Position numbers and translations under genes: made by a program. Below, piece after piece: positions 1-30,119 of a stretch of DNA of 60,776 nucleotides. The stretch lies in the IMG/VR virus record IMGVR_UViG_3300046007_009360, one strand, 5' to 3'. This DNA comes from an uncultured virus (IMG/VR IMGVR_UViG_3300046007_009360). Lineage: Duplodnaviria; Heunggongvirae; Uroviricota; Caudoviricetes. The notes below the pieces were generated by a model. It saw only the letters and a program-made list of their open reading frames with translations. It searched no databases and was not told where the DNA came from. Position 1 is the first letter of the stretch, and every line of letters starts with the position of its first letter.

Positions 1-5
1 TTGGT

Positions 6-3677: not shown

Positions 3678-3682
3678 TTTAA

Positions 3683-3702: not shown

Positions 3703-3705
3703 ATT

Positions 3706-5598: not shown

Positions 5599-5602
5599 AT
5601 AT

Positions 5603-8380: not shown

Positions 8381-11274
8381 ATATAAAATTTATTACAGGA
8401 TATTTATCAGAAAATCAAAGAAATACAGGATCTCTTGAAATATTTTATGATTTTAGTGGTATATCGGGCTTTTTTGTGCCTAATAGGTTCTACCAAAACG
8501 AAGTGCAGTTTTCTAAAATCGGAGGAGGTTTTCAAGTAAATAAAGAATACTACCCAGGCATATTTATTTCTTGTTATCAAGAAACGGGGTTTACTGGGTC
8601 TGGAATCTTTGAAGGGATAAATACATTAAAAGTATTTAATAATCTTAGTGGAGATAATATTAGTTTATTTTATAATTTCGGCAGATTAAATTGTAATAAA
8701 GATTTTTCTATTAATTCTAAGAATATAATTACTCCAACAGGTAAAATTCAAATTTTAAGTTATATAGAATCTAAAGATCAATCTAATCCATTCGAGATAA
8801 TATTAGGTTTAAATGATGCATATAAACTTACCCTAGAATTTTCTGGTAAAATTAATGGAAATCAAGAAGAGAAGTATAGGTCTACAAATTATGCAGAATT
8901 AGCTTTTGAGAACGCCGGAGCAATAAGAATTAATAATAAAAATTTAGAATTTAGTTATTTTGATATCATAGAAAATGAAATTAGCAACAACATAATCAAT
9001 TTAACAGGATCATATTTTAGCCAAGAAAAAAATATCTATATTGGAAATATGCCTACAGGTAAATATAGAGATGGTTATACTGGATTTTTGGGAGTCGTTG
9101 ATGATTTTATTGGATTTAATGAATATTTTGATTTGAATATTTCAGCCGGAATCTCTAAACTTTTTATAAAAACTGGAGAAGAGACTATAGTTACAGATAT
9201 AACTGGAGTTTCATATAATGTTATTCAAAGTGGATTTTTAAATCCTACAGGAATATTAGGAACAGGAATTACTGGCTATCAAATTGTTCCATCAGAAGAG
9301 GTAATAAATGCCAGCTGTGGAGAATCTTGTGTTGTATATGTAAAATCTGGAGTAACTGGTATAATTACAGGGGAAAAAATAGAATACGTTGTTGTTGGAC
9401 AAGAAAGTTATGCAGTAACTCAACAAGAAACAAAGAACAATCTTTATGATCAAGATTACGCGTCTAAATTTACTAAAAATTACATAGTTTTTACTCCAGC
9501 ATTAGATTCACAAGATATTTTTAATATTAATTTCTATAAAGACGTAAATGCAATTGTAGATTATCCGAACTATTCATATTTAGATAAAACCTATATTGCT
9601 GATAACGATTTAGGCGAAAAGAATGTTTTAATATTTTTTAATGGAGTAAATATAGCTTCAAATGAATATCAAATTAGCGCAAGTGAAGATAGGTTCAAGA
9701 TATCAAAATATGATAGAGATCAAAATGATCTAATATTATATACTCTATCAAGTCAAAGAAATTTTAAAGACCAAGTTTCAATCGGAAATAATTCAATTTT
9801 TCTTACAGGTATAAATTTAGATAAATATAATTTATTTCTAAATGGCCAAAAACTAATAAATAATTACAATTATTCTGGAGAGAACGTTTATGTTTTAAAC
9901 ACTGAATTAAGCGGTTCTCAAGAGTTAAATACAACTGGATATTTTGGAAATTCTACGGCAATGAGTGCTGACGGAAATATTGCTATCATTGGCGAGTATC
10001 GATTCAATCATAATAATGCTCAAACTCCAACAGGAGCCGCATGGGTAGCTAAATATGATGGAGAAAAATGGTCAAAATTTAAAAGATTATCTGGTATTTA
10101 TCGTACTGTTGGGAGTAATTATTTTGGTTTGAGTTCTTCAACTAATTATAACGGAACCATCGCTGCGATATCTGATCCATACGTAAATGGGGGAACAGCA
10201 TATATATTCACAGGTATAAATGGAAATTTATTTTTAAATACAGGTTTAAGCGGCAATAATTCTTCGCTACTTTATGGAAATTTTTTAAAACTTAATTACT
10301 CTGGAGATATTCTTTTCGTAAATGATCCATTTCAACCAGTTGGCATTAATCGTGGAGCCGTATGGATCTATACTGGAAATAATGGTTCAAATTGGGCTCT
10401 TACACAAAGAATTGATGGTCCAATTGCAGGAGGACTAAATTATTTTGGAAATAGCATAGATATAGATCTAACAAATAAAACAGGAATTATAGGAGCACGC
10501 GCTTCAAATGATAATAGCGGCGTTGCTTACATTATAACCGGAAATAATTACAAATGGGATATTGCAGCAAGTTTAACGGGTCTAATAAGTGGCTTTAGTT
10601 ATTTTGGTTCAAGCGTTGCTATAAATAAAGAAGGAAATATTGCTGCAGTTGGTGCGCCATGGTCAAATAATTTGTCTGGCATCGTTTATTTATACACTGG
10701 TAATAATAATAACTGGAATATTATAAAAACATTTAGTGGCACATATAATAGTCAAAGATTTGGTAGTAGAATTAAAATGAGTAAAGAAGAGAATATTCTT
10801 GGAGTCTTAGATGAATATCCATTTTCTTATAGATTGAGACTATATTCTGGCAATAAAAATAATTGGGAATTTTATAAAGAAATATTTAAATTTTCAGTTT
10901 TAGATAATTTCGATTTTAGTGAAGATGTAAACAGTATAGTTTTTGGATCTCCAGCTTCTGATGCTTTAAGCGGAACAGCTTATTTTTATAACGAAAAACA
11001 GCAAGTTACATTTTTAAATCCAAATATTGATGGTAATGATCAGATATATATTAAAGAGGATGATTATGTTAACTCTTTAACTGGAACAAATATAAAAACA
11101 TATAATGCAAATTTAAATTATAATAATGAAAAAATCTGGCTAAATGGTATATATCAAAATAAAAATGAAAATTATATACTAACATCATGTATTAATGAGA
11201 TGATGAGGCCTACCGGAGATATAGAATCTAAAAATGAAACTATATTTAATAATGAATATTATAGATTTAATTAA
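8377..11274 (+). CDS. Tail protein with laminin-G-like N-terminal region, (F/L)NG repeats and inserted FG-GAP propeller
   Basis: IYIG...FLGVVDDF resembles the end of a LamG/concanavalin domain; IFFNGV, LFLNGQ and IWLNGIYQ repeats; FG-GAP repeats at ~9890-11000; ATGA overlap with previous gene. Confidence 0.6.
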   Translation: MNIKFITGYLSENQRNTGSLEIFYDFSGISGFFVPNRFYQNEVQFSKIGGGFQVNKEYYPGIFISCYQETGFTGSGIFEGINTLKVFNNLSGDNISLFYNFGRLNCNKDFSINSKNIITPTGKIQILSYIESKDQSNPFEIILGLNDAYKLTLEFSGKINGNQEEKYRSTNYAELAFENAGAIRINNKNLEFSYFDIIENEISNNIINLTGSYFSQEKNIYIGNMPTGKYRDGYTGFLGVVDDFIGFNEYFDLNISAGISKLFIKTGEETIVTDITGVSYNVIQSGFLNPTGILGTGITGYQIVPSEEVINASCGESCVVYVKSGVTGIITGEKIEYVVVGQESYAVTQQETKNNLYDQDYASKFTKNYIVFTPALDSQDIFNINFYKDVNAIVDYPNYSYLDKTYIADNDLGEKNVLIFFNGVNIASNEYQISASEDRFKISKYDRDQNDLILYTLSSQRNFKDQVSIGNNSIFLTGINLDKYNLFLNGQKLINNYNYSGENVYVLNTELSGSQELNTTGYFGNSTAMSADGNIAIIGEYRFNHNNAQTPTGAAWVAKYDGEKWSKFKRLSGIYRTVGSNYFGLSSSTNYNGTIAAISDPYVNGGTAYIFTGINGNLFLNTGLSGNNSSLLYGNFLKLNYSGDILFVNDPFQPVGINRGAVWIYTGNNGSNWALTQRIDGPIAGGLNYFGNSIDIDLTNKTGIIGARASNDNSGVAYIITGNNYKWDIAASLTGLISGFSYFGSSVAINKEGNIAAVGAPWSNNLSGIVYLYTGNNNNWNIIKTFSGTYNSQRFGSRIKMSKEENILGVLDEYPFSYRLRLYSGNKNNWEFYKEIFKFSVLDNFDFSEDVNSIVFGSPASDALSGTAYFYNEKQQVTFLNPNIDGNDQIYIKEDDYVNSLTGTNIKTYNANLNYNNEKIWLNGIYQNKNENYILTSCINEMMRPTGDIESKNETIFNNEYYRFN

Positions 11275-11276
11275 TA

Positions 11277-11307
11277 GTGTAAATATAATAAGGTTCAAGG
11301 AATAAGG
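11277..11307 (+). promoter_or_regulatory. GTGTAA putative late-promoter motif followed by triple AAGG leader
   Basis: GTGTAAATATAAT, then AAGG at 11290, 11297 and 11304; ATG at 11310. Confidence 0.5.
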
Positions 11308-11309
11308 TT

Positions 11310-13562
11310 ATGCCAATAAGGTCTATAGAAAAGATTAAGATAGGGAATTATCCATATGGTAGATTTGGAAATGGATATATATATTCTGCTGAAATAAATC
11401 AGGGATATGCAGAAAATTCAAATAGTTTAACAGTGGACATTGTATATGAACAAAATCAATCAATAGTTTTACCAGAGAAAAATTTAACTACTTCTTATAG
11501 AATAGAGTTCGGAAGTTTAGTTTTTCCTGTTAATTATTTTATAAAACATACGAAAAATGTTGCAGTAAATGAAGAAGTTATAACCTGTACATTTATAGAT
11601 AATTCTGTTATTTTAGATAGATATTTCGTAGGTTTATCAAATAGACATTATAGAGTATCAGAATCGAATCAAAATTTTGATATATCTGTAACATGTGCAA
11701 ATTGTGATAATACAATAAGCGTTCAAAATGGAAGTGTATCAAGATCTGTTGTGGCGAATTCTCCTAATTTACTTATCAATAATTTAATTGTTGTTGGAGA
11801 AGAGGAATTTATAGATCAAGCATGCGATATTCCAGATGTTAAATATAGTTTTTCTGATCTATTGGCCGCAATGAGTAAGATACCTAACTTTTCTTTTACA
11901 AATTTTTCAGATATTAATCCAGCTTATAAAACGTCTTATACCGGCACACTAAGAGAAGTTTTATCTAATTGGTGCAGTGATTTTGGATTTACTTTCTACT
12001 GGGATTCACTAAATAATACTTTAGTATGTTTAGATCTTAGAAACCCAATAGATCTAACCCCAATAGAGAATTTTATAACAAGTAATTTTAACAGAAATAA
12101 TCCAAATTCTAATGTTCCATTATCAAGCTTTTCAGAAGAAGAGAGTTTAGAAGGTACGTATCAACAGGATAATATTGACTATGTATTAAAACCAGCGAGA
12201 ACAAAAGAAAAAGGTATTATAGAATTTTTTCCTATTACTTATAGTGCAATTTATCCAAATACTTCATTTTCAGAACTAGATTTAGTTTTATCAAAAACAA
12301 ATAGAGAAGCTTTTACTTTGCATTTATTGACGCAAAATAGATTTTCTGAAATGGGTTTTGTTAAAGTATATGATGGCATTGAAACATATATACTTCAAAC
12401 TGTATTGCAGAATATCCAAGAATTTAGCGCAGATGGCAGAGCAGTTATAAAAATTGGTTATTATTATAGAGATCAAGAAGAAGCCTATGCAGAAAAAGTT
12501 AGTTCTGCAGCAGAAGATTTAGGAAGATATTATGTAAATTTAAATTATGTTGCTTGGAAAAGTTTAACTTGCAATGATAATTCTAAATATAATATATCAA
12601 TAAGTTACGAACCTCAACCTATAATTGGAATAAGTCCATGGAAAGCTTATGGAGGAAATCCAGCATTACCTATAGGAGTTACATGGCTAATTCAAAGAAA
12701 TCCTGTATGGAATATAAATTCCAATAATTTTAATGTTGATGGTTTAGGTCCAATATACGTAGATATAGTTGGTGAAATAGCAGATCAAGTTAGAGATGCA
12801 CTCTTAATCTTAAGTCCTAATCGTGCTGATGCAGATAAATATAGAGGTCTAACATTAATTGCATATAAACCATATTTATCTAGACAAATAAGCTATAATT
12901 ATTGGAATAACGCTGAAGAAGGATATATACAAGCCGCCTTTGAACAAGAAAACCTAAGTGAATGTCAAACGATCTGTGAAAAAGATTCAAATTCAGAAAT
13001 ATGCAGAAAATCTTGTAATAATTTAACTGCCCCAGCGAATGGGTTAGTTAGCAAATCCAGTTCTCTTTATACAATAACAAATACATTAAATGGATCAAGT
13101 ATGACAATAGGTTTACCATCTCAACAGAATTATCTAGGATACATAAAAGCAGAAGGGTCATTTAGTTATGTTGAGCCAGGAGTAAAACAAATGCAAGGTA
13201 ACACAAATTTTCAGGCTAATTCAAATGTTATGAATTATTCTGTTAATCTAAACGATGTTACTACTGACGAACCTACTGTCGGCCAAACAATTAATTTTTC
13301 TACTATTGATCAAAATAGCGATAATCTAGATATTGTGCAAACAAATTTAAAGAAAAATTTAAATTTAAAAATTATTGGAATGGACTATGGAAATCTTGCT
13401 CAATATTTAAACCCAAACTATGGACTTACCAACTTTAGTATATATCTAAATGATAATGGTGTATTTTCAGATTTAGGATTTCAAAATAGACCTGCAAAAA
13501 GACCAGATCCAGAAGTAACTATGAAAAAAGTTGGTCCTAGAAAAACGAGTATATTAAAATAA
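11310..13562 (+). CDS. Putative baseplate hub/tail tip protein
   Basis: Position in tail module; YTGTLREVLSNWCSDFGFTFYWD resembles hub-protein segments; Cys clusters CANC and CQTIC...C...C. Confidence 0.5.
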   Translation: MPIRSIEKIKIGNYPYGRFGNGYIYSAEINQGYAENSNSLTVDIVYEQNQSIVLPEKNLTTSYRIEFGSLVFPVNYFIKHTKNVAVNEEVITCTFIDNSVILDRYFVGLSNRHYRVSESNQNFDISVTCANCDNTISVQNGSVSRSVVANSPNLLINNLIVVGEEEFIDQACDIPDVKYSFSDLLAAMSKIPNFSFTNFSDINPAYKTSYTGTLREVLSNWCSDFGFTFYWDSLNNTLVCLDLRNPIDLTPIENFITSNFNRNNPNSNVPLSSFSEEESLEGTYQQDNIDYVLKPARTKEKGIIEFFPITYSAIYPNTSFSELDLVLSKTNREAFTLHLLTQNRFSEMGFVKVYDGIETYILQTVLQNIQEFSADGRAVIKIGYYYRDQEEAYAEKVSSAAEDLGRYYVNLNYVAWKSLTCNDNSKYNISISYEPQPIIGISPWKAYGGNPALPIGVTWLIQRNPVWNINSNNFNVDGLGPIYVDIVGEIADQVRDALLILSPNRADADKYRGLTLIAYKPYLSRQISYNYWNNAEEGYIQAAFEQENLSECQTICEKDSNSEICRKSCNNLTAPANGLVSKSSSLYTITNTLNGSSMTIGLPSQQNYLGYIKAEGSFSYVEPGVKQMQGNTNFQANSNVMNYSVNLNDVTTDEPTVGQTINFSTIDQNSDNLDIVQTNLKKNLNLKIIGMDYGNLAQYLNPNYGLTNFSIYLNDNGVFSDLGFQNRPAKRPDPEVTMKKVGPRKTSILK

Positions 13563-13563
13563 T

Positions 13564-16500
13564 ATGGAATTCTTAGGCAATAAATATTTATCTTTAAGTT
13601 ATCAAACTGGTCTATCATTTGAACTAGACTTTTCTATTAATAATATAAATAGTATTTGTAATTTAGGATTTAGTGGAGAAAATAAAAACTTAAATTTTAA
13701 ATTTGAATCAGGAAAAATCTTTGATCCAGAGAATCGTTTGGTCTCTTTTTATTCTTCTGGTGAGAATATAAATATTTCCGGAGATATCTCTCCTAGGAAT
13801 TATTCTTATTATATTAATGATAATCTTTTATGCTTAAATGGAAAAAAAGATAATTTTATTATTAGTGGCTATTATATAAATAGCCCAGATTCAATAGTAA
13901 ATTCTGATATCAGAATACAAGGAACAAGACCCCAATATGAATTATATCTAAGTCCTGTATTTTATATTACTGGTACAGAATATTTAACTGGTTCAATTAC
14001 CAACTTAAATAATTTAAATTTTAAAATATATAGTGGATCTATAACAATACCTTCTAATTTCAGTATACAAAGTATATCTGAATTTGTCTATGACACTGGG
14101 TATTTTAATATAAACACTTATAGTGCTACTCAAAACCAATTAGAAGACGAAAGACTCTACGAAGTACAATTAAATCTATTTACAAATTTTGGAACAATAA
14201 CCAAGAATTTTACTACTACAGGATCTTTCTCAGGATACTTAAATGTAAATTTAAATTTAGAAAATATTACGAACTTTTTTGCTCGAACAGGCCTACAAAC
14301 TGGATTAGGAGATTTTAAAGATAATGATTATTCTCTCATCTATTCTATAATAAGTGGTAGTTTAAGATCCCCTCAAGTTAATTTAGATAAATATATAAAT
14401 ATTCAACTTAAATATTATACTGGTTACACAGGAGAAATAACTGGAAATTTACTTGCTACAGGTTATAAAAATTTAATTTTAACTGGATTTATAAATGGTA
14501 GTGGATTCTTAAATGGATTATCTAGTTTGCCAATGACAGGATATCATGCTTTGTCTGGAATTAACATAACAGGACTCTTAACTGGTTACGCAAGCGAATT
14601 TACATTTTTTACTGGTTTTTCTAATTTTAATTTAAATCTACCAACTACAGGATATTATTTATCTAGAGTTATTACTGGAAATAGAAGTTTTGATGTTACG
14701 GCATTTACATCAACTGGAATTATAGACTATAATAATTATATAACAAATAATTTTCCTATTAAAGTAGAAACTTTTCCAACTGGTTTAACTGGATCGTTTG
14801 GACAATTTATAAGTTCTAATGAATCTGGATCTGTAGTTTTTGTTTCTAATTTAGATTTTGTTAATATAAATCATTCTACTGGACGAGTTTATGCATTTAC
14901 TGGTAATCAAATTAATTGGAGAAATGTAAATTTTATTTCTGGTTTAAGAGGCGATAAATATTTCGGTCAGACAATAATAGATAGAAGAGGAGATGAAATC
15001 TTTATTACGTCAAAAAGAGGATCTCTATTAAATAACACAGGAATTTCTGGAAGAGTTTATAGATTTATAGATTATACTCAGAATATTATTGATGCGGAGT
15101 ATTTTGAAAAAAGTGGAAACTTTGGAAATAGTTTAGCGATAAATTCTGGAAATATATTAATAATTGGCGCAAATTATGCAGATGGTGGAACTGGAGCAGC
15201 TTTTGTTTATAAATCTGAAAATATTAGCGGATATTCACGAACTAATATAATATATTCTGATCCTGGAGCAGACGCTCTTGGAACATCAATAAGCGTAAGT
15301 AGAGATGAAAAAGTTATTTTAGCTGGTATTCCAAATAATAGCACTTTCTTTTCGTTAAATGGAGGAGTTTGGATATTGACTGGTGATGGTAATTTTTATG
15401 AAAAAAGTATAAAAATATATGGCGATAGAATAGGCGTTGATAATTTTGGAGCTAGCGTAGCTTTAAATGGGAATGGTTATTTAGGTTTAATCGGTGCTTC
15501 CTCCCATCAAGAAGGGGCTACTAATTTTGCTGGTCAAGTTTTTATCTTAACTGGAAATGGAATTACGTGGGCAACAGGCGCAAGACTAACAGGAGATGGT
15601 GGAACTGATCAATTTGGGACAAGTGTAGCTATAAATGATTATGGTAATATAGGATTAGTTGGAGCTTCTAATGATAATTCTAATGTTGGTGCAGTATGGT
15701 TTATAACTGGTAGTGGTATTATTTGGTCTAAAATAGAGCCAAAAATCACGGGAAATACGATTAATAGCGCTATGGGTCGGTCAGTTGCGTTAAATAGCAG
15801 TGGAAATATAGCTGTTGTAGGCTCTCCTTTAGATAGACAAGTAGGCTCTGATGCTGGAGCGGTATGGATAATAACTGGAGATAATTTTATTTGGAATACT
15901 GGAGCGAAAATTTTACCACCCTCCGCGTTGTCATACTTTGGTACTGCAGTTGATATAAATAAAAAAGGAGATATTATCGCTATTGGAAGTAATAATTTTA
16001 ATAACCCTGGATATGCATATATCTATACAGGAAGTGGAAATAATTGGATTCAAACAGATATCTTTACTGGGGAAAATGTGGCAGATTATTTTGGTATTTC
16101 AGTATCTTTAAATGATAGTGGAAATATTCTTTCCGTTGGAGCGGTTCGAAATTCTGATGATGTTTCACTAGCTGGTGCAGTATATATCTATACTGGTGCA
16201 CCAAATAATTTTAAATTTTTTGATAAAATAAAAGGTAGAAATACTAATGCTCAATTTGGATCTCGCTCGAAGATTTTACAGTCTGGAAATGCACTTGTAG
16301 TTGGTGAACCACGGAATAGTACTATTACTTTAAATGGTGGTGCACTTAATTTTTATAGAAATATTTTACTAACAGGCTTTAATGAAACTCAGAGAATCGT
16401 CGGGCAGATATCAAATAGTAGTCATAATTTTAGTCAATCTATTTCTATAAATAACAATGGAAATAATTTATTAATTGGAGCAATAAACGCGCCATCTAGT

Positions 16501-17424
16501 GGTTATGCTTATATTTTTACAGGAAGTTATAATGCTAACTATGAATTAGTATCAATATTAAATAGAACAAATGGTCAGAATGGAGATTTATTTGGATATT
16601 CTACATCTCTAAATAAACTAGGCAATATTGCCGCAATTGGTGCGCCAGGATATTCTTCTTCAAGAGGAGCAATATACATATTTACAGGAAACTTAAATAA
16701 TCAATGGTTTCAGAATTCATTTATTAGCGGAACAGTAAATGCGCCAACTGAATTTGGGCATGTTTTAAAATTAAATGATTTAGGTGATCTTTTAGCAGTA
16801 GCATCTTACAACACAGATCCAATAACATATCCAAATATAAGTGGGGCAATACATTTATATACAGGCAGCGGAGATAACAAACAGCAATGGGTAAAACTAA
16901 GAACTATTGATGAAGTTATTATAAATGGTAATTCTAATTTAAATTTAAAATCTGGTTTAGAATTTATTAATAATGAATATGCTGATCTTTTATTCTTCTC
17001 GGATTATTTTTCAAATACTGGATATGTGCAGGTAGTATCAAATATAAATCAAACTGGATTTATTGGATACCTTACTGGTTCTGGAGTTATACAACTAAAT
17101 GAGAATAATTATCTATTAACAGGTTTATTAACTGGACAAAGATATAATAAAACATTTACTGATGCATTTAATTTAATTACGGGATATTATTTAAATGGAA
17201 CTCTAACAGGTCTTCAAGACTTTAAATTAAATAATTATATATTAAATAATTCTTATATTAACTCTGGTTTTATCTCTAATGATGTAAGTCAACTATATAT
17301 TCAAGCAAAAACAAGAAATTATTTTAGTAATGATATTATAAGTGGTCTATTAATAGTAAGTGGTTATGAAACTGGAAAATATACAAACAGTGTAATTAAT
17401 ACTATAATAACAGGTATAAGGTAA
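13564..17424 (+). CDS. Large tail/adsorption protein with about 12-14 FG-GAP repeats and TG-rich flanks
   Basis: FG-GAP-like repeats at ~14770-17040, enough for two propellers; dense xTG motifs at ~14415-14720. Confidence 0.65.
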   Translation: MEFLGNKYLSLSYQTGLSFELDFSINNINSICNLGFSGENKNLNFKFESGKIFDPENRLVSFYSSGENINISGDISPRNYSYYINDNLLCLNGKKDNFIISGYYINSPDSIVNSDIRIQGTRPQYELYLSPVFYITGTEYLTGSITNLNNLNFKIYSGSITIPSNFSIQSISEFVYDTGYFNINTYSATQNQLEDERLYEVQLNLFTNFGTITKNFTTTGSFSGYLNVNLNLENITNFFARTGLQTGLGDFKDNDYSLIYSIISGSLRSPQVNLDKYINIQLKYYTGYTGEITGNLLATGYKNLILTGFINGSGFLNGLSSLPMTGYHALSGINITGLLTGYASEFTFFTGFSNFNLNLPTTGYYLSRVITGNRSFDVTAFTSTGIIDYNNYITNNFPIKVETFPTGLTGSFGQFISSNESGSVVFVSNLDFVNINHSTGRVYAFTGNQINWRNVNFISGLRGDKYFGQTIIDRRGDEIFITSKRGSLLNNTGISGRVYRFIDYTQNIIDAEYFEKSGNFGNSLAINSGNILIIGANYADGGTGAAFVYKSENISGYSRTNIIYSDPGADALGTSISVSRDEKVILAGIPNNSTFFSLNGGVWILTGDGNFYEKSIKIYGDRIGVDNFGASVALNGNGYLGLIGASSHQEGATNFAGQVFILTGNGITWATGARLTGDGGTDQFGTSVAINDYGNIGLVGASNDNSNVGAVWFITGSGIIWSKIEPKITGNTINSAMGRSVALNSSGNIAVVGSPLDRQVGSDAGAVWIITGDNFIWNTGAKILPPSALSYFGTAVDINKKGDIIAIGSNNFNNPGYAYIYTGSGNNWIQTDIFTGENVADYFGISVSLNDSGNILSVGAVRNSDDVSLAGAVYIYTGAPNNFKFFDKIKGRNTNAQFGSRSKILQSGNALVVGEPRNSTITLNGGALNFYRNILLTGFNETQRIVGQISNSSHNFSQSISINNNGNNLLIGAINAPSSGYAYIFTGSYNANYELVSILNRTNGQNGDLFGYSTSLNKLGNIAAIGAPGYSSSRGAIYIFTGNLNNQWFQNSFISGTVNAPTEFGHVLKLNDLGDLLAVASYNTDPITYPNISGAIHLYTGSGDNKQQWVKLRTIDEVIINGNSNLNLKSGLEFINNEYADLLFFSDYFSNTGYVQVVSNINQTGFIGYLTGSGVIQLNENNYLLTGLLTGQRYNKTFTDAFNLITGYYLNGTLTGLQDFKLNNYILNNSYINSGFISNDVSQLYIQAKTRNYFSNDIISGLLIVSGYETGKYTNSVINTIITGIR
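17390..17421 (+). promoter_or_regulatory. GTGTAA motif plus CAGG/AAGG leader before fibre gene
   Basis: GTGTAATTAATACT at 17390; CAGG at 17411 and AAGG at 17418; ATG at 17426. Confidence 0.45.
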
Positions 17425-17425
17425 A

Positions 17426-19303
17426 ATGGCAGCTCAAATTAAACCAGATTACGGAAATAAATTACTAGGAGCAGACTGTTTAGATCCAAGAACTAGAGAT
17501 TTAAAATTTGGAACAAATCAATTTTATAATGATTACTGTTCAAACGTATTACAATTAAATTCAATAAGACATACATCAAGTTCATCTCCTTATTTTGAAT
17601 CTTTTTTAAATAATGCCGGTATAACTTTTAGGCCAGCAGAATTTCCAAATTTATATACTCAAATATATACAGATGGAAACTCAATGAATGTATATACAAA
17701 AAGTCAAAATACTTTTTCATTACTTAAAACTAATAATTCAGCTTCTTTGTTAAGTATACAAGATACAGTTAATAATAAAATAATAGAATTAGATTCTGCT
17801 GATATTGTAGCGAATACAAATGTATATTTAAGAAATTGGGGAACAACAAATAATCCAATATATGTGGCTTCAAATGCGAATGGAGATAGTTATTTGCCAA
17901 ATCTTGGTGTTAGATTTGCATTAATTGCATCAAATGCGAGCTCAGCTAATAATGCAGCCCAAGCTTCTTATGCAACTTATTCTTTTTATTCTGAGATTGC
18001 AAGAGATAGCTCTTACTCATTAGTAACTGCAGATGCAACTAGATCATCTTACGCTGCTTATGCTGGAACTGCAAATAATGCTGGTATTGCTATTTTTGCT
18101 AATAATGCTGATACAGCCTCTTATGCTTTAACTGCTGCGGGTGGTACTTCGTATGCGGCCAACGCAGGATACGCCGGTACTGCCACAAATGCACAATTTG
18201 CCACTACCGCAAGCTATGCATTATCTAGTCCAGGAGGTACATACGCTATCTCTGCTGGTTATGCGGGAACAGCTACAAATGCAGCTTTTTCTGACTTCTC
18301 TTCAGCCTCGTCTTATGCAGTAAACGCTGGATACGCAGGAACCGCTACAGACGCAGCTTTCGCGACGAATTCATCTTACGCAACCAACGCTGGATACGCA
18401 GGAACAGCTACTAACTCTCAGTTTGCGGCATTTGCAAATAGTTCAACCAACGCTGGGTATGCTGGAACAGCTACTAACGCAGCCTTTGCCACAAATTCAT
18501 CTTACGCTACAAATGCCGGATATGCTGGAACAGCTACTGACGCAGCATTTGCAACTACATCTTCATATTCTTTAAGTTCTGCCGGAAGTTCATCTTACGC
18601 AACCAACGCTGGATACGCAGGAACCGCTACCAACGCAGCTTTCGCGACGAATTCATCTTACGCAACCAACGCTGGATACGCAGGAACCGCTACCAACGCA
18701 GCATTCGCGACGAATTCATCTTACGCAACCAACGCTGGATACGCAGGGACTGCTACCAACGCAGCCTTTGCGACGAATTCGACATTTGCAACAAATGCGG
18801 GATACGCTGGAACCGCTACAAACGCAGCATTCGCGACGAATTCGACATTTGCAACAAATGCTGGATATGCTGGAACGGCAACAAATGCTCAATTTTCTAC
18901 TACTGCAAGTTACGCTTTAAGTTCCCCTGGTGGACCCTCTTCATATGCACTTGCTGCGGGATACGCTGGAACCGCTACAAACGCAGCTTTCGCGACGAAT
19001 TCATCTTACGCAACCAACGCTGGATACGCAGGAACCGCTACCAACGCAGCATTCGCGACGAATTCATCTTACGCAACCAACGCTGGATACGCAGGGACTG
19101 CTACCAACGCAGCCTTTGCGACAAACGCAACCTCATCAACAAATGCGGGATATGCAGGAACCGCATCGAATTCTGCATTTGCAACAAATTCTTCATATGC
19201 AAGTTATTCAAATCGTTCAGCAGGAGTTGTAGGATTTACTGAACTAGCAATTAGTGTTTGCGTTGGCGGTACTACTACATCAAAAACATTTTTAGTTAAG
19301 TAA
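17426..19303 (+). CDS. Putative tail fibre with Ala-x-x periodic 21-aa repeats
   Basis: Repeats of ATNAGYAGTATNAAFATNSSY; last gene of the + strand tail block; short C-terminal ISVCVGG motif. Confidence 0.6.
   Translation: MAAQIKPDYGNKLLGADCLDPRTRDLKFGTNQFYNDYCSNVLQLNSIRHTSSSSPYFESFLNNAGITFRPAEFPNLYTQIYTDGNSMNVYTKSQNTFSLLKTNNSASLLSIQDTVNNKIIELDSADIVANTNVYLRNWGTTNNPIYVASNANGDSYLPNLGVRFALIASNASSANNAAQASYATYSFYSEIARDSSYSLVTADATRSSYAAYAGTANNAGIAIFANNADTASYALTAAGGTSYAANAGYAGTATNAQFATTASYALSSPGGTYAISAGYAGTATNAAFSDFSSASSYAVNAGYAGTATDAAFATNSSYATNAGYAGTATNSQFAAFANSSTNAGYAGTATNAAFATNSSYATNAGYAGTATDAAFATTSSYSLSSAGSSSYATNAGYAGTATNAAFATNSSYATNAGYAGTATNAAFATNSSYATNAGYAGTATNAAFATNSTFATNAGYAGTATNAAFATNSTFATNAGYAGTATNAQFSTTASYALSSPGGPSSYALAAGYAGTATNAAFATNSSYATNAGYAGTATNAAFATNSSYATNAGYAGTATNAAFATNATSSTNAGYAGTASNSAFATNSSYASYSNRSAGVVGFTELAISVCVGGTTTSKTFLVK
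18150..19200 (+). repeat. Coding tandem repeat, 63-bp unit, about 15 copies
   Basis: Unit ~tcatcttacgcaaccaacgctggatacgcaggaaccgctaccaacgcagc(t/a)ttcgcgacgaat; 18632-18774 reads identical to 18980-19122; local GC much higher than the rest of the window. Confidence 0.9.
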
Positions 19304-20170
19304 TTTATTTATATTTTCAATAATTATATTTGGATGTATTTGTTTTGTACATTCGAACATTTTATCTGTATTTTTATGTCTAGGACAATATATAAAATCT
19401 TTATATGAAAAAATAAAATTCTCATCATTCCAACAACTATTGCACACATTTTTATTGATGATTCTATATGGTGTATAAAATTCTGTTTTAGGATCACTAA
19501 ATCCACTAATTAATATAACTTTTTTATTTAAAGCCCAAGCTAACCAAGAGAGACCAGATGGTAGGCCAATAAAAAATTCACAATTATAAATATCCGTTAT
19601 TCTTTCTTGAATATTTATATTTCCAGTTTTATCTACTGCATTTCTAGGTATATTATTAATATATACTAAATTGCCATAAGATGAATATTTATCTATGCAT
19701 ATTACTTTATAGTCTAATCTATTTAAATAGTCTGTAATAATTTCCCATCCATTTGGATAATTCCAGTATTTAGCTTGATTTGTACTCTGAACTGATATGC
19801 ATACATATTTTTGATTTTCTTGATTTTTTGTATCTCTTATTAATAGATTAGGTTTAATTGATCTATATGGAATTCTTAGTATATCACAAGCTACTTCTTG
19901 TAAATTTAAAGATCTCGGATCTTTTAGATTTAATTCTTTAAATTTTAGATCTTCTATAAAAAATCCTAATTCATAAATTTTATTAAAATTAAAATCTTGT
20001 ATTTGAGTCGAATTTATAAAATTAATATTTGGGTAATTAAATATTTTATAATATTCATTTATACAAAAAATATTAGCGTTACTTAATTTTCTATATTCTT
20101 CAACCATAGGCATCCAAGCTAGAGAGTCTCCTAGACAATTACTTAAAAATTTTATTAAAATGTTATTCAT
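19292..20170 (-). CDS. Aah/TibC-type (autotransporter strand-loop-strand) O-heptosyltransferase homologue, GT9-like
   Basis: LGDSLAW, STNQAKYWN..GW, FIGLPSGLSWLAW, ISGFS and Cys motif CNSCW..CPRH..FEC. Confidence 0.8.
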   Translation of the reverse strand: MNNILIKFLSNCLGDSLAWMPMVEEYRKLSNANIFCINEYYKIFNYPNINFINSTQIQDFNFNKIYELGFFIEDLKFKELNLKDPRSLNLQEVACDILRIPYRSIKPNLLIRDTKNQENQKYVCISVQSTNQAKYWNYPNGWEIITDYLNRLDYKVICIDKYSSYGNLVYINNIPRNAVDKTGNINIQERITDIYNCEFFIGLPSGLSWLAWALNKKVILISGFSDPKTEFYTPYRIINKNVCNSCWNDENFIFSYKDFIYCPRHKNTDKMFECTKQIHPNIIIENINKLLN

Positions 20171-21146
20171 TTGATTTTATTACTTGGTTTATAACTTCGA
20201 TAACCATATTAGAATTTATTTTTTTTGTACACTCGAACATTCTTTTGGTATTTTTATGCCTTGGACACATTAAGAAATCATTAAATGGGTTATCTGTAGA
20301 GAATCCAGTTATTGATTTGTCTTCAAAACAAGAATTACAAACATCCTTATTTAATATTGAATAAGGATTTTTAAAAGCAATCCTTCTTCCTGTTAAACCT
20401 AAAATCTGTATAACCTTCTTATCTAGTGCCCACGCTAACCAAGAAAGACCTGAATCTAAACCTATGAAAAAACTACAATTATATATTATATTAACTAAAT
20501 CTTTTAATGGCAAACCAGTGAAATCTATACAATTATTTGGTATACTATTATAGTATACTAAGTTTCCATAGTTTCTATGCTGATCTACGCATATAACTGA
20601 ATATCCTTTTATATTTAGAAAATCTATTATATTTTTCCATCCAGTAGTATTATTCCAATATTTACCTTGTACCGTTGTCTGTGTAGCTATGCATACGTAT
20701 CCATTTACGCCCATCTTATCCATAAAAATTGGTTGAGGATTAAATGAAATTTTTGGTTTAATCTCCTCTGTGATCTCTAAATCTAAAAAATCCGCCATTT
20801 GTGCTTGAAGTGGAAGTCTTTTATTTTTTAATTCTTTTTTAATAATTTTATTATTTTCTTTCTTGAGATAGGTGGTTGTATAAGCTAGATTATACATTTC
20901 ATTTAATGAATATACGTTATCATCGTAAACTAAGAATAAATCATTATTTTTTGTAAAAAAATCTTGATCATCCTTTAAGAAAAATATATTTTTATATTCT
21001 TTATAAAAAAGGTAGTAAAATTTATTTGAAAAAAAAACTTTTTTATTTTTATTTATATTTGCGTATATTTCTATCAAAGGCATTACCGCTATAGAATCGC
21101 CTAGACCCAAAATAGAACCATTAAAAAAAATATTTTCTTTATTCAT
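20163..21146 (-). CDS. Second Aah/TibC-type O-heptosyltransferase homologue
   Basis: GLGDSIA, QGKYWN..GW, FIGLDSGLSWLAW, CNSCF..CPRH..FEC. Confidence 0.75.
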   Translation of the reverse strand: MNKENIFFNGSILGLGDSIAVMPLIEIYANINKNKKVFFSNKFYYLFYKEYKNIFFLKDDQDFFTKNNDLFLVYDDNVYSLNEMYNLAYTTTYLKKENNKIIKKELKNKRLPLQAQMADFLDLEITEEIKPKISFNPQPIFMDKMGVNGYVCIATQTTVQGKYWNNTTGWKNIIDFLNIKGYSVICVDQHRNYGNLVYYNSIPNNCIDFTGLPLKDLVNIIYNCSFFIGLDSGLSWLAWALDKKVIQILGLTGRRIAFKNPYSILNKDVCNSCFEDKSITGFSTDNPFNDFLMCPRHKNTKRMFECTKKINSNMVIEVINQVIKSNE

Positions 21147-21880
21147 TATTCCATCAATGTATCTAGTCTAAAGATATAGTCGTTCTTTATTTCTTTAGGA
21201 ATTGCGGCAGCGTGAGCTACGTATACATCTTTAGAAAGTATATCTGGTGGAACTAGATTTACAACTCTCGGAGATAGTTTAGAACGAATGCAATTTATAG
21301 CCATTGAGTTATATTGTTTAGGTAATGCGCGATGAGGTATTTTATATTTTCTTAAAAGATAATTAATTTTTGTTTGATCAGAAAAATTAAAAAATATTTT
21401 ATAATTTTCGTCATCAAAGATAACTTTATGCTCTTTTTCCATCATCATAAATCCTGCATTATAATAACCATAAGTCCAATTTATACTGCCTAACATTGCT
21501 TGAGAGCTAATCATTTCATCTACTCTATGAAAGCAATATTCATCTCCAGCTGCTCCGTCTAAAACCGCATAGAAATATCCATCTTCATATATCTCAAAAA
21601 TATTAGGAATTTTTCTGGACACTACCATATCAGCATCTATACATAAAGTTTTATCAAATTTTCCTATTATATTTTTTAGTATTAAGGACTTATTATATTG
21701 ATTTAATTCGTAATTTTCTGGCCAATCTTCATTTTTTAAATTTTTATCTATTCTATTTTCAATAATTAATTCTGCATTCCATTTGTTAGCTAAAAAATTC
21801 AAACGTGGCACAACAACTTTTTCAAAAGCTTCTTTATATGAAGGCTCGAACCAATAATAAGTTACTATTGCCGTTTTCAT
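21146..21880 (-). CDS. GT-A glycosyltransferase (GT8-like)
   Basis: CIDADM (DxD), YNAGFM, DQTKIN, late HAA. Confidence 0.7.
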   Translation of the reverse strand: MKTAIVTYYWFEPSYKEAFEKVVVPRLNFLANKWNAELIIENRIDKNLKNEDWPENYELNQYNKSLILKNIIGKFDKTLCIDADMVVSRKIPNIFEIYEDGYFYAVLDGAAGDEYCFHRVDEMISSQAMLGSINWTYGYYNAGFMMMEKEHKVIFDDENYKIFFNFSDQTKINYLLRKYKIPHRALPKQYNSMAINCIRSKLSPRVVNLVPPDILSKDVYVAHAAAIPKEIKNDYIFRLDTLME

Positions 21881-22725
21881 TTATGAAAGAATGGACATTT
21901 TGATATGGAACTTCTTAATTTATTTAGATCGTTTATTTGATCTTTCCTAGAAGATATATATCTCTTCTTTAATAAAGCCAAAGTCGCCTCTTCTTTAAAA
22001 ATATCGTTATCTGTTACTTTCCTTACATTAAAATTAAAATTATTATTTTTCTTTATAGGAATCATTTTAACTATAGATGTTCCAGCCGGAATTAAGAAGG
22101 AGAACGGAGCTTTTCTATGAATTTGTATATTTATATTAAGATGACTTCCAAATTCTGGATTAAATATTCCTGGAACAGCTGAGAATAAATTAGAAGTATT
22201 AGAATAATATACTGGTAATAACATTAATTGCCAATCTTTATTCATATTCACTCTCCAATTAGACATAATTTTTAATAAATGCGGCCATGTATCTTCTCTA
22301 CTTCTCGCAAATTCTGGAAATTGATTACCATTATGAGATTGAACTTCTGGATTTATAAATTGTCCATTTTTAAGATTTCCAGCTGGAGTAGGAGTTTCTA
22401 TAAGAAATTTACCATCATCATCATTTGATATTAAGGTAACTCTTATATCTTGCCAAGTTTTTAAATGAATTCCCTCGTTCATTATAGATCTAATGCCAGG
22501 ACATTTTTCAACAAAGAAAGTATTACCTTTTGGATTTAAATTCTTGTTATCGTGAAAATCGTCAATATAGATCTTGGTTTTTTCTAATCTATTCTTTAGC
22601 CAAGAAGGATTCTCGTCGTGAAAGGCTTTAATTGGTTGACTTACTTCTTCTAAGCCAGGAATTATAGAATAGAATTCTATCTCTGGATCATCTTTTTTAA
22701 AAAAAGATAAAATTTTATTAATCAT
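21877..22725 (-). CDS. Hypothetical phage protein
   Basis: Intact ORF overlapping its neighbours; KCPGI..W.D, AVPG and IPAGT motifs; ends CPFFHK. Confidence 0.6.
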   Translation of the reverse strand: MINKILSFFKKDDPEIEFYSIIPGLEEVSQPIKAFHDENPSWLKNRLEKTKIYIDDFHDNKNLNPKGNTFFVEKCPGIRSIMNEGIHLKTWQDIRVTLISNDDDGKFLIETPTPAGNLKNGQFINPEVQSHNGNQFPEFARSREDTWPHLLKIMSNWRVNMNKDWQLMLLPVYYSNTSNLFSAVPGIFNPEFGSHLNINIQIHRKAPFSFLIPAGTSIVKMIPIKKNNNFNFNVRKVTDNDIFKEEATLALLKKRYISSRKDQINDLNKLRSSISKCPFFHK

Positions 22726-22876
22726 CTTTCTTTATCTTAAAGATATTCAAGATATTATTAAATTCTGGTACTTCAACTCCTTTTAACTCTGTACGAGATA
22801 GATATTTAAATAGAGCCTCTACTTCTTTTAGAGTTAAAGAGAAAGTGTAACTTGATTCTTGATCTTCTTTATTCAT
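22718..22876 (-). CDS. Small hypothetical protein (52 aa), absent from the ORF track
   Basis: MNKEDQESSYTFSLTLKEVEALFKYLSRTELKGVEVPEFNNILNIFKIKKDD*; ATGA-coupled to the upstream stop and overlapping the downstream start. Confidence 0.7.
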   Translation of the reverse strand: MNKEDQESSYTFSLTLKEVEALFKYLSRTELKGVEVPEFNNILNIFKIKKDD

Positions 22877-23676
22877 ACATTCTTTATCCTTTCAATAAGT
22901 TCAAAGATTTTGCTCTTCGATATATCTGATATATTATTAATATTTTCTGCATTTTCAAATTTTTCTTTAATTAATTTCTTTTTTAATTGGTCAAAAGAAA
23001 TTCCTTTTTCTTTCATGACTTTCTCTAGTAAAACATGAGGAGAAGTTGGATTCTCCTGTACGGAGGGAGATTCATCAAGGAGTTTAGCGTCTCCTAGTTC
23101 CTCTTGAGAAACGATATTAATTTTTAAGAAGTTACGTACACAACGAACAAAAGCTCTGTTCTCAGCTATTGCTGCAAGAAAGAAGCGAGCGAAAGATTTT
23201 GTATTACTAGATGTCGCATCAGCCAGAGCCTCGAAGATAATTTCTCTGCCATCGGTTTCATAGTTTGGCATCCAAGTAATTCTACAGCTTGTGGCAAAAT
23301 AATTCTCAGAAGCGGTAACTACTTTGTATTCAACCTTTGAATAACCTCTAATTTGAGCTAATTCTTTAATACCACCTAATAGAATTAATAGGTCTTTATC
23401 TTCTAATTTTGATACATCTGTTTCTTGTGTCTTTTGACGATTTGGAACAAGATACTCTGTCTTTACCATCTTACGCCAATTAATAGAACCATCTTCATTA
23501 TAGATATAATTTATATTTTTATTCTCTAACAAACCATATTTATTTCTGGTAATTATTTTTGGTGGAATCTGAACCTCTTCTATAGCTTTACTTGGCTCAC
23601 TTAGTATATCAATGTTATTTAACTCTGAACTACCTATCGTAATAGTCTCTTGATTTTCTTTAATTTTTGGGCTCAT
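22873..23676 (-). CDS. Conserved phage protein, possibly Rad52/Red-beta-like ssDNA annealing protein
   Basis: LGGIKELA..GY, ADA..N and AIAENRAFVRCVR recall annealase motifs; start moved to ATG 23676 because the track's TTG is the promoter -35. Confidence 0.4.
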   Translation of the reverse strand: MSPKIKENQETITIGSSELNNIDILSEPSKAIEEVQIPPKIITRNKYGLLENKNINYIYNEDGSINWRKMVKTEYLVPNRQKTQETDVSKLEDKDLLILLGGIKELAQIRGYSKVEYKVVTASENYFATSCRITWMPNYETDGREIIFEALADATSSNTKSFARFFLAAIAENRAFVRCVRNFLKINIVSQEELGDAKLLDESPSVQENPTSPHVLLEKVMKEKGISFDQLKKKLIKEKFENAENINNISDISKSKIFELIERIKNV

Positions 23677-23683
23677 TTTAATA

Positions 23684-23712
23684 ATGATACTGTAATTTTT
23701 ATTACTGGTCAA
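23684..23712 (-). promoter_or_regulatory. Sigma70-like promoter
   Basis: TTGACC-N17-TATCAT, 7 nt before ATG 23676. Confidence 0.7.
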
Positions 23713-27312: not shown

Positions 27313-27341
27313 ATATTACTCTTTATTATTAGTATTGTCAA
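27313..27341 (-). promoter_or_regulatory. Sigma70-like promoter
   Basis: TTGACA-N17-TAATAT, 7 nt before ATG 27305. Confidence 0.7.
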
Positions 27342-29925
27342 CTATTTTCTTTAGATCATTTAATTTCATATATATTTCTTGGTCTTGGATCGCGACAAGA
27401 TCGCCAAATATACAATCATCTTTCTTTAATCCTTTAACTATAACAATATTTCCTTCTTCAAAATTCCTATTATTTAATAATTTATTATTTTCAATATTAT
27501 CGTTAAATATTAACGTATTAATATATCCAGTTTCATCAGAAATCTTAAGTCGAACATATCTAGTTTTCTTTTCATTTTTTGAAACTCCAGAGAATACATC
27601 GTCAATTTGACCAACAAATGCAATTTTTGTATTTAAAGGTATATCAGATATATCGGATATATGTATTAGATTCTCTCTTTTCTCTGAAAATATTTCTTTT
27701 AGATTCTTATTATAAGTATAACCTAATAATCTCTTTTCATAATACCAATTTGCAAAACTTTCACTCTTACTATTTTGATTGTATATCTTTAAATATGGAT
27801 CATATTTATTTTTTATTGTTTTAAGTCTATTATCTTTAACGACTATATGATTTTTTTCATCTGTAAATTTATTTAAATGTTTAATGATTTTAATTAGATC
27901 ATAATCAAATTTCTCTGCAAATGAAATAGCATATTTCTTTTCTTTAGAGGTTAAAATGTTCCATAATTGAGCTTCTAAAACTATTTTAGATCTTGATTGT
28001 TTAAATCCACTTAATGCTCCAGCTTGAATTAAGGCAGATAAAACTCCAATGTTTAGATCTGCTTCTTCTGCCGCTTGAAAAATTTCAAATTTATTAGAAT
28101 ATTTATTCCTAAAACTATTTAGTTTCTCAATTGATTTATCTGATATTCCCTTGATAGAAAGTAAGCCAAATCTAATATCTCTATCTTCAATAGAAAAATC
28201 CATATCAGATTTAATGATGTGGGGTGGTAATAATTCAATTTTAAATTCATGCATTTCTTTTTGAATTTTAGATATTTCACCAATTGGGTCTGGTTCATTT
28301 CTGCTCATCTTTAATAAGGATAAGAAAAATTGTTGTGGATAATTAAATTTAAGATAAATTGTAACCGCGGCCAAAGCTGCATATGCAAGTGAATGAGATT
28401 TATTAAATGAATAATTTGCAGAGTCTTCCATGATCTTCCATAAGATATCTCCGACCTCTTTTGGTAATTTATTTTGTTTTATTTTTGCATCAATTTTCTT
28501 TTGCCATGCTTTAATCTCTTCGATCTTCTTCTTACCCACGATTCTTCTTAAGATTTCTGCTTCATCGAGCGTAAATCCAATCTTGTGGGCCATTTGCATC
28601 AATTGCTCTTGATAAAGTGCAACTCCACCAGTTTGTTTTAGAATCTCATCAAAGAATGGGTGAATGCTCTCATAATCTTCTGTATTTGTATATTTTGCAT
28701 ACTTATCAACAAATTGAAGCGCTCCAGGTCTAGCTAACGCAAGAACCCCACTAAGTTCTTCTAGATTTTTTGGTTTTACTTTTTGGCAAACTTTAAAATT
28801 TGTATCTGCCTCAATTTGGAATAATCCATGTGGACTTCTTAGGTCTTGAAGATTTCTATAAATTGATTCGTCATTTAGATTGATATCTTCAACTTTTATT
28901 CCTATATTTTTGCATACATCATGAACTACAGATACGCTTCTTAAACCTAAAATATCTAGTTTAATATTAAATAAACTTACCCAATTCATATCAAAACTTG
29001 AAACAGGTTCTTTATCAGAAGAAAATTCTGTTGGACATACTTTTTCTAAATCATCGTAAGAAAGCAACACGCCAGATGGATGTACGCCTTTATTTTTAAT
29101 TAAATCTCTTAGTTTTAGTGCTATTTCGTATACTTCTTTATTCTCATCGCACCATTCTTGAAATTTAGATACTTCTTTATAGGCAGTTGTTATGTCTTTA
29201 ACTTGACCGAATACTTTTGGGATCAAAGAAGATATCGTAGTCATTTCCTCTTCAGTTTTCTCGCCTACAATTTTACCACATTCCTTTATGAGTAATTTTC
29301 CGCTAAGGGTATTAAGAGTTAAAATCTTACTTGTTTTGCCTTTAAATTTATTCTCAAGATACTCCAATACTTTATGACGATTATAGTAACAAATGTCAAG
29401 ATCTACGTCGCACATTAAACTACCATCTAAGTACGTTACCCCATCAACAACCTGCTTTTTAGCTCGAATCTTGGATATAAATCTTTCAAAATAAAGGTTA
29501 TATTTAACTGGATCTATTCTTGTCACCCCTATAAGATAAAGAATTAGAGACCCTGCGGCAGAACCTCTACCTAAACCAACAGGAATATTATTAGTTTTAC
29601 AAAAGTTAATAACATCCCAAACTAATAAAATATAATCAATAAATCCAAGTTCTTTTAATGTATCTAATTCGTATTTAGCGCGATCTACATATTTTTTATA
29701 TTCTGGCAGACTTTTATCTATCTTTAGATCTTTAAATCCATTTAAGGCTAATGCTCTAAGAAAATCATAATTTAAAACATCCTCACTAAGATTAAGATGC
29801 CTTTTCGCTGAAGATTCAATATTAAACTCTGGAAGTCTTACTCCATGTAAGCCTAAATCTAGATCTTCAAATTTTGAAGATAGATCTTTATCAGCGCGAA
29901 GGTTATTCAAATTTTCCTTCATCAT
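27316..29925 (-). CDS. dnaE: DNA polymerase III alpha catalytic core, lacking the PHP domain
   Basis: GRGSAAGSL, DVDLD, HPSG, KLDILGL, YSFNKSH; C-terminal OB-fold. Confidence 0.92.
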   Translation of the reverse strand: MMKENLNNLRADKDLSSKFEDLDLGLHGVRLPEFNIESSAKRHLNLSEDVLNYDFLRALALNGFKDLKIDKSLPEYKKYVDRAKYELDTLKELGFIDYILLVWDVINFCKTNNIPVGLGRGSAAGSLILYLIGVTRIDPVKYNLYFERFISKIRAKKQVVDGVTYLDGSLMCDVDLDICYYNRHKVLEYLENKFKGKTSKILTLNTLSGKLLIKECGKIVGEKTEEEMTTISSLIPKVFGQVKDITTAYKEVSKFQEWCDENKEVYEIALKLRDLIKNKGVHPSGVLLSYDDLEKVCPTEFSSDKEPVSSFDMNWVSLFNIKLDILGLRSVSVVHDVCKNIGIKVEDINLNDESIYRNLQDLRSPHGLFQIEADTNFKVCQKVKPKNLEELSGVLALARPGALQFVDKYAKYTNTEDYESIHPFFDEILKQTGGVALYQEQLMQMAHKIGFTLDEAEILRRIVGKKKIEEIKAWQKKIDAKIKQNKLPKEVGDILWKIMEDSANYSFNKSHSLAYAALAAVTIYLKFNYPQQFFLSLLKMSRNEPDPIGEISKIQKEMHEFKIELLPPHIIKSDMDFSIEDRDIRFGLLSIKGISDKSIEKLNSFRNKYSNKFEIFQAAEEADLNIGVLSALIQAGALSGFKQSRSKIVLEAQLWNILTSKEKKYAISFAEKFDYDLIKIIKHLNKFTDEKNHIVVKDNRLKTIKNKYDPYLKIYNQNSKSESFANWYYEKRLLGYTYNKNLKEIFSEKRENLIHISDISDIPLNTKIAFVGQIDDVFSGVSKNEKKTRYVRLKISDETGYINTLIFNDNIENNKLLNNRNFEEGNIVIVKGLKKDDCIFGDLVAIQDQEIYMKLNDLKKIVDNTNNKE

Positions 29926-30118
29926 CTAATCTATCAACCTCTTTTGTAAATTCATTTAATCCTTGAGTTAAAATCTTCATTGAATTTTTATCTTTTAGAG
30001 AATAGAACACATCAGCTTTCCCATTTTTCTTTCCTTTTTGAATAGTAATCAAGAGATATTCTATATTTGAATCATCTAATTTCTGAATCATGTCATAAAT
30101 ATCATCTAATGATGCCAT
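29903..30118 (-). CDS. Small hypothetical protein between exonuclease and polymerase core
   Basis: 71-aa ORF tightly packed with both neighbours. Confidence 0.6.
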   Translation of the reverse strand: MASLDDIYDMIQKLDDSNIEYLLITIQKGKKNGKADVFYSLKDKNSMKILTQGLNEFTKEVDRLDDEGKFE

Positions 30119-30119
30119 A

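Follow-up and report, generated by a model that had tools for sequence, protein, structure and literature searches.

A barrel-less TibC-type glycosyltransferase pair linked to a repeat fibre gene in an uncultured tailed phage

The closest described systems to the one treated here are TibC–TibA and Aah–AIDA-I of Escherichia coli (bacterial autotransporter heptosyltransferases, BAHT; family TIGR04414; structures 4RAP and 4RB4; PMC4358343), in which the glycosyltransferase is co-transcribed with the autotransporter adhesin to which it adds heptose. The accessible text on TibC names Asp110 as the base, Thr226, Lys230, Arg286 and Trp305 as donor contacts and four cysteines as iron ligands; Pro300 is described as a determinant of selectivity for ADP-D,D-heptose, and Arg286, which contacts the adenine, is credited with excluding guanine nucleotides (PMC4358343). 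Here we examine a related arrangement in IMG/VR record IMGVR_UViG_3300046007_009360, a stretch of 60,776 nucleotides from an uncultured virus of the Caudoviricetes, which as a whole is called the window below. Two paralogous enzymes, A and B, are encoded tail to tail with a repeat protein gene, 17426..19303, referred to as the fibre, and we put the probability that the phage uses them to O-glycosylate this fibre at roughly 55%.

Virion glycosylation has been reported in few tailed phages. For mycobacteriophage Che8 and its relatives, virion proteins have been proposed or shown to be glycosylated by phage-encoded enzymes, with the sugars located on subunits of the capsid and the tail tube (accessible parts of PMC12619734 and PMC11256854); the candidate here is a repeat fibre. 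Those parts mention no TibC-type enzyme, and glycosyltransferases of large aquatic phages are discussed there without heptose (PMC12619734). Full-text literature searches, in which subscription journals are thinly covered, returned no publication on phage TibC homologues among the papers listed. Many close homologues already bear the TIGR04414 name in databases. The family is matched by 4 of 50,697 GenBank phage records and by at least 594 stretches in IMG/VR, where tandem copies are common. These other phage homologues are mostly fused to GT4 or GT2 domains, some have a diverged barrel, and they are associated with collagens; A and B, in contrast, are stand-alone, barrel-less enzymes accompanied by an Ala-rich fibre. 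The elements at the centre of the locus are the following.

19292..20170, minus strand: paralogue A, a barrel-less TibC/Aah-type GT-B glycosyltransferase of 292 residues (TIGR04414, TibC alignment, AlphaFold2 and Foldseek)
20163..21146, minus strand: paralogue B, a barrel-less TibC/Aah-type glycosyltransferase of 327 residues (TIGR04414, residue table, tree)
17426..19303, plus strand: Ala/Thr/Ser repeat protein of 625 residues, last gene of the tail block and candidate acceptor (composition, slot)
18323..19202, plus strand: tandem repeat region with a 63-bp (21-residue) unit, modelled as a single-chain beta-helix (Tandem Repeats Finder, AlphaFold2)
19292..19303, no strand: 12 nt shared by the convergent ends of A and the fibre gene, where the plus-strand tail block meets the minus-strand replication and sugar block

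Two paralogues of the TibC type

A first-pass annotation of this DNA had read two minus-strand paralogues with QxKYWN, SGLSWLAW and four-cysteine motifs, the distal one overlapping the stop of the fibre gene by 12 nt, and the sequence bears this out. The two proteins are 42% identical and carry QAKYWN (A) or QGKYWN (B), SGLSWLAW in both, and cysteines at C243, C246, C262 and C274 in A and at C270, C273, C294 and C306 in B. The TIGR04414 profile proposed as a check scores 300.7 bits for A and 210.4 bits for B against a cut-off of 200, and a sequence search of the PDB (E ≤ 0.001) returned TibC as the sole match (E 2e-61 for A, 3e-47 for B), so that the assignment to the Aah/TibC family holds. 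The contrary outcome, best matches to lipopolysaccharide (LPS) enzymes of the WaaC/WaaF type without the Cys motif, did not occur. LPS heptosyltransferase profiles reach at best 31.7 bits against a cut-off of 185.3, and the LPS signature D(T/S)(G/A)xxH (PMC3559599) is incomplete: its Asp is present in B, with Trp in place of His, and neither residue occurs in A.

The AlphaFold2 model of A (predicted local distance difference test, pLDDT, 90.4) matches TibC (4RAP) in Foldseek with a template modelling (TM) score of 0.90, a root-mean-square deviation (rmsd) of 2.1–2.2 Å and E 3e-29, whereas WaaC and WaaF give TM scores of 0.54–0.61 (WaaC 0.54–0.60); the TibC topology was thus examined on a model for A and by sequence for B. 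With the E. coli systems the phage locus shares the catalytic-domain fold, the catalytic Asp, the donor-binding Thr, Lys and Trp, the four-Cys iron finger, the thumb hairpin and, next to the enzymes, a repeat protein whose model is a beta-helix. The thumb tip reads Val-Tyr in place of Phe265-Val266 of TibC, and Phe368 is kept. With WaaC, WaaF and WaaQ (GT9) A and B share the GT-B/GT9 fold, but those enzymes lack the iron finger, and both phage proteins have Trp instead of the signature His. A and B are putative iron-finger GT-B enzymes, predicted from their cysteines to bind iron.

The N-terminal beta-barrel of TibC (PF21129) is absent from A and B in a Pfam scan at E ≤ 1 that finds it in an E. 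coli homologue, and alignments with TibC begin at TibC residue 99. It was also not found in two records of the same lineage, G001 and G036, while 3 of 8 other phage TibC-type proteins scanned have a diverged barrel. One back-to-back interface of the TibC dodecamer ring uses the barrel (PMC4358343, accessible part), which A and B lack. Judged by their sequences, the two probably work like Aah/TibC (BAHT) enzymes, yet they are not canonical members, since the essential barrel of TibC is missing. Further differences from the E. coli pairs are that the locus is phage-encoded, that it holds two specialised paralogues and a GT8 enzyme, that the donor pocket of B is changed, and that the partner is an opposite-strand tail-block gene rather than a co-transcribed autotransporter; no autotransporter family was found among the open reading frames (ORFs) of the window with Pfam and NCBIfam.

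In the donor pocket A keeps every TibC residue (D15, T130, K134, R190, P204, W209). B keeps D17, T158, K162, W236 and the four cysteines, but has L217 at the position of Arg286 and D231 at that of Pro300. In a FastTree tree of TibC-type proteins, A falls into a clade of 20 tips (support 0.93) and B into one of 23 tips (0.99), and the two clades join at a support of 0.96, in a group that also includes a single long-branch phage protein. Residue counts over the database proteins of these clades (19 and 22) show that 18 of the 19 A-clade proteins retain Arg286 and 14 retain Pro300; in the B clade Pro300 is replaced by Asp in 21 of 22, and Arg286 occurs only in the mosaic protein P0020. The catalytic Asp is present in 21 of the 22 B-clade proteins, the remaining one being truncated, and the four cysteines in 19/19 and 22/22. 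D231 of B aligns with D261 of WaaC in a match that is weak (E 0.62) and spans 41 residues without a gap (WaaC 242–282). In WaaC, according to the accessible parts of PMC3559599 and PMC5713226, Asp261 touches heptose O3 and its mutation cuts activity about 2000-fold.

On this evidence A and B are sister clades, and we read them as two specialised copies. The pocket of A would fit ADP-D,D-heptose. B is predicted to be active with another donor, acceptor or step; a different donor or step is suggested by the fixed loss of the Arg and by the replacement of Pro with Asp in nearly all of its clade. The heptosyltransferase label of the first-pass annotation therefore suits A but is doubtful for B, and both the missing barrel and the two changed pocket residues of B had been overlooked. 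As for P0020, its N-lobe is nearer to B (65/130 versus 35/116 identities) and its C-lobe nearer to A (139/170 versus 99/170), which suggests a lobe exchange between the paralogues.

Inheritance of the enzymes with the fibre

Three minus-strand genes complete the description of the junction.

21146..21880, minus strand: GT8-family glycosyltransferase, part of the cassette and candidate chain-extending enzyme (PF01501, 30.9 bits, cut-off 24.3)
21877..22725, minus strand: protein phrog_7084, function not assigned, with a loose tie to the cassette (in sister phage L188; also in 1 of 80 enzyme-free control loci)
22873..23712, minus strand: phage-family core gene, anchor of the control set and cassette boundary (80 relatives at 72–82% identity)

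The sister phage L188 has the same arrangement, GT8-B-A tail to tail with a fibre gene across an 8-nt overlap, at identities of 61% (GT8), 55% (B), 72% (A) and 50% (fibre), and also carries the phrog_7084 gene. Two more fibre homologues, from two further lineages (52% and 32% identical), have longest assemblies equal in size to those of B-clade proteins (31,348 and 27,607); such equal-size matches, found for 2 of 5 fibre homologues over 195 pairs compared, are indirect evidence of linkage, and the co-occurrence of enzymes and fibre holds down to about 32% fibre identity. Control loci were the best 80 of at least 537 relatives of the core gene at 22873. Neither the enzymes nor the fibre family occurs at the junction in any of these 80, 70 of which extend 3.7 kb or more downstream, and the GT8 gene is missing from all 80 as well. 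The TIGR04414 and fibre profiles each match 0 of 38 unselected relative records (10–87% complete), whereas both match the two records of the A/B lineage (19–24% complete). The nearest record, G001 (36,985 bp; identical to G037), adds nothing to the cassette seen in the window.

These absences among relatives, set against presence in the lineage, show GT8-B-A and the fibre to be an accessory cassette that is co-inherited, and within the lineage the link between fibre and enzymes is probably real. A clade-specific DNA pattern occurs in 2 viral stretches and in none of GTDB. Profile scans with close homologues gave distant phages among the matches listed. A search of IMG/VR with the N-terminus of the fibre matched this phage alone, although L188 has a homologue, so that such scans miss members.

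What kind of protein is the fibre? Residues 301–600 consist of 31% Ala, 18% Thr and 13% Ser, and the repeat, of period 63 in Tandem Repeats Finder, contains 15 AGYAGTA units. Scans of Pfam, NCBIfam and PHROG name no family for it, and an ESM Atlas search gave sub-threshold leads only (best 0.82; TM ≤ 0.38). A Pfam match to Plasmodium_HRP was rejected as low-complexity noise. In relatives, collagen-like or other fibre-like genes take its place, and the C-terminal VCxxG motif is shared by five control loci; position and motif together support the name fibre. An AlphaFold2 monomer model folds the repeat into a beta-helix with a 21-residue period, its repeat blocks mostly at pLDDT 73–92. In VIA-align this model resembles a curli subunit (Z 25.2, rmsd 8.9), tailspikes (Z 24–25) and TibA (Z 16.3, rmsd 5.0, 272 aligned residues). 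The fibre repeat thus models as the beta-helix fold of the TibC substrate TibA, with the caveat that repeats readily become solenoids in such predictions and that the fibre was folded as a monomer only. Phage fibres can be intertwined trimers. For the related enzyme Aah, the accessible part of PMC3835316 reports recognition of a strand-loop-strand structure and not of a sequence.

Substrate, donors and competing explanations

In the mechanism that we propose, A and B would be made from the minus-strand block in the cytoplasm of the infected cell. Before or during tail assembly, A would move heptose from host ADP-heptose, most likely in the D,D form, onto Ser hydroxyls of the fibre beta-helix with D15 as the base. 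B, the copy whose donor pocket has been remodelled, would add a second or different sugar, either at another site or as an extension of the sugar placed by A, and the GT8 enzyme may extend the glycan chain. The sugar coat would most likely stabilise the fibre or tune its binding, as for TibA and AIDA-I. In line with the first-pass annotation, neither gmhA nor hldE is found among the 56 ORFs of the window with Pfam and NCBIfam (Pfam only for the ORF cut at the window end), and gmhA is found in 0 of 17 phage records.

A more elaborate version can be offered tentatively: a two-donor, possibly hetero-oligomeric line, in which A would prime Ser with host ADP-D,D-heptose, B would add a different nucleotide-sugar produced by the sugar island described below and GT8 would cap the chain. 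On this view the lineage would have dispensed with the barrel, and the enzyme would have been duplicated, each copy taking on a role of its own. If so, the phage would build a glycan of several sugars on its tail fibre by means of a family so far described for bacterial adhesins only. More generally, a TibC-type route would extend virion glycosylation to tail fibres of abundant aquatic phages, going by the IMG/VR stretches counted above, and might bear on how fibres fold, on host range and on decay. The cassette is in any case a compact test case, with two stand-alone enzymes of about 300 residues and one linked candidate substrate. The enzymes are a natural pair differing at two residues known to set donor choice, and they allow a test of whether the barrel serves catalysis or autotransporter recognition only.

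Several observations weigh against glycosylation of the fibre. Deletion of the barrel abolished the activity of TibC on TibA, and TibC modified Ser only (PMC4358343, accessible part), whereas A and B are barrel-less and the fibre has more Thr than Ser. The fibre model is weak overall, with a mean pLDDT of 58 and 39–52 for the other four models, and Foldseek returned nothing for it at E ≤ 0.001. Direct synteny of the cassette is seen in two phages only, and the junction is highly variable in the 80 relatives, so that co-transfer without a functional tie is possible. The donor would presumably come from the host, for which no usable prediction was obtained: 14 GTDB contigs matched, spread over unrelated taxa. 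The enzyme-beside-adhesin logic of the first-pass annotation stands within the lineage, given L188, the 38 relatives without either partner and the beta-helix model, but does not extend to phages in general. When 105 viral enzyme loci were reduced to 29 clusters at 70% identity, with one representative locus each, a Ser/Thr repeat ORF was present in 5 of 29 loci versus 4 of 27 control clusters (p=1.0), and within 3 kb in 3 of 29 versus 1 of 27 (p=0.61).

The alternative that survives best, though we regard it as rather unlikely, is that the enzymes glycosylate other virion proteins, such as a Gly-Ser-Ser collagen or a capsid or tail protein encoded elsewhere in the genome, and that the fibre is a co-transferred passenger. 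Besides the variable junction, it draws on a further set of results that count against the fibre. A Gly-Ser/Thr-Ser/Thr collagen pattern is present in 15 of 30 other enzyme-bearing records versus 3 of 38 controls (p ~2e-4), and with at least 20 matches in 9 of 30 versus 0 of 38 (p ~3e-4), the controls coming from one phage family, so that the rows are not independent. The TibC homologues in question are mostly not adjacent to these collagens. Gene A is also found on a contig of 161,901 bp, the longest, which places about 100 kb of the genome outside the window, where a Gly-Ser-Ser collagen could possibly lie. A separate observation against glycosylation of the fibre is that four relatives (L194, L203, L211 and L268), in which no TibC-type enzyme was found, have Thr/Ser-rich Gly-Ala-Thr collagens in the fibre slot; the coordinates in three of them are as follows.

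L194 12191–13585, L203 12364–13713, L268 12492–14420: Gly-Ala-Thr or Gly-Ser-Thr collagen-like fibres with few prolines

Against the explanation by other virion proteins, no Gly-Ser/Thr-Ser/Thr collagen was found in the window, which includes the tail block, or in the two lineage records (19–24% complete), and the fibre family and the enzymes track each other over the range of fibre identity given above.

Modification of the host surface, on outer-membrane proteins or the LPS core, for instance to mask a receptor, seems improbable. In its favour, A and B lie at the end of the long minus-strand sugar block and point the same way as about 20 genes for sugar biosynthesis and glycosyl transfer. 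B carries the Asp that belongs to the LPS heptosyltransferase signature, LPS cores are extended by GT8 enzymes, and without the barrel the acceptor could be a different one. However, LPS heptosyltransferase profiles score far under their cut-off, the structure is much nearer to TibC than to WaaC or WaaF, the iron finger and the TibC Trp are kept, and the cassette travels with the fibre gene, about 16 kb from the sugar island.

It is very unlikely that only A is catalytic and that B is a structural partner, replacing the lost barrel in an A/B hetero-oligomer that presents the fibre, a notion compatible with the fibre as substrate. The two do recur as a pair, with five matches of exactly equal longest assembly size among 19 A-side and 20 B-side proteins; they share the thumb tip (Val/Ile-Tyr), and B has an N-lobe insertion and has lost the adenine-contacting Arg. 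Across the B clade, however, the catalytic Asp, Thr, Lys and Trp are retained, and a conserved Asp has appeared at the point where heptose is bound in WaaC. Glycosylation of phage DNA bases by the enzymes and GT8 is the least credible explanation: phage glycosyltransferases can put heptose on 5-hydroxymethylcytosine, and A, B and GT8 are encoded on the strand of the replication block, but the heptose-adding enzyme in the accessible part of that report is T4 beta-glucosyltransferase-like and accompanied by a cytosine methylase and a dioxygenase (10.1101/2023.12.21.572611); none of these families is found among the 56 window ORFs scanned, and the linkage here is to the fibre.

Surrounding genes and related phages

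The source phage has a large, low-GC genome, of which the window holds a part. Its plus-strand tail-type block of long genes spans 6–19303, three of them with FG-GAP repeats, and the minus-strand block encodes DnaE, DnaB, a primase, ThyX, a UvsX-like recombinase and about 20 sugar genes. Promoter and terminator scans stay at chance level (38 versus 38.7 expected and 2 versus 2.6, respectively).

The first-pass annotation had named the tail gene 13564..17424 as a second candidate substrate. The protein has 49 Thr-Gly pairs versus 11.3 expected, but the excess also occurs in relatives without the enzymes, so that it does not single out this protein. The FG-GAP tail proteins at 5603–8380, 8377–11274 and 13564–17424 (plus strand) all show a 4–5-fold Thr-Gly excess, again in enzyme-free relatives, and their Thr-Gly/Ser-Gly excess was rejected as a mark of the enzymes. 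Family-core GT4 (24832) and GT9-like (23702) genes, present in 68 and 77 of the 80 control loci, are possible modifiers.

The sugar island comprises about 20 minus-strand genes at 37760–57831 of the window. It includes a Gmd-like gene (38488), a dTDP-glucose dehydratase scoring over its cut-off (39550), a NeuD-type acetyltransferase (41261), three DegT/RfbH-like genes (41873, 43306 and 46920), an FkbM methylase (46121) and GT9-like genes, as well as a PanB-like gene over the TIGR00222 cut-off (54243) and a split thiamine pyrophosphate/acetolactate-synthase-like pair (55914 and 55169). We take the island to resemble branched or deoxy-sugar synthesis, possibly yersiniose-like. The DnaE-type polymerase is divided over three minus-strand genes at 27316–31504, with a PHP domain (30758), an exonuclease (30120) and the catalytic part (27316), a division kept in about 50 of the 80 relatives.

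By the sizes of their ORFs, loci L002 and L004–L015 looked syntenic with the window, a reading dropped because BLASTP found no shared neighbours. Among cultured phages, Microcystis phage Mel-JY01 (PP395634) has a TibC-type domain within the coding sequence 2–3052, annotated as 'methyltransferase FkbM'. At 4750–8430 the same record contains a plus-strand Gly-Thr/Ser-Ser collagen-like frame of 1016 codons, where two minus-strand hypothetical genes are listed.

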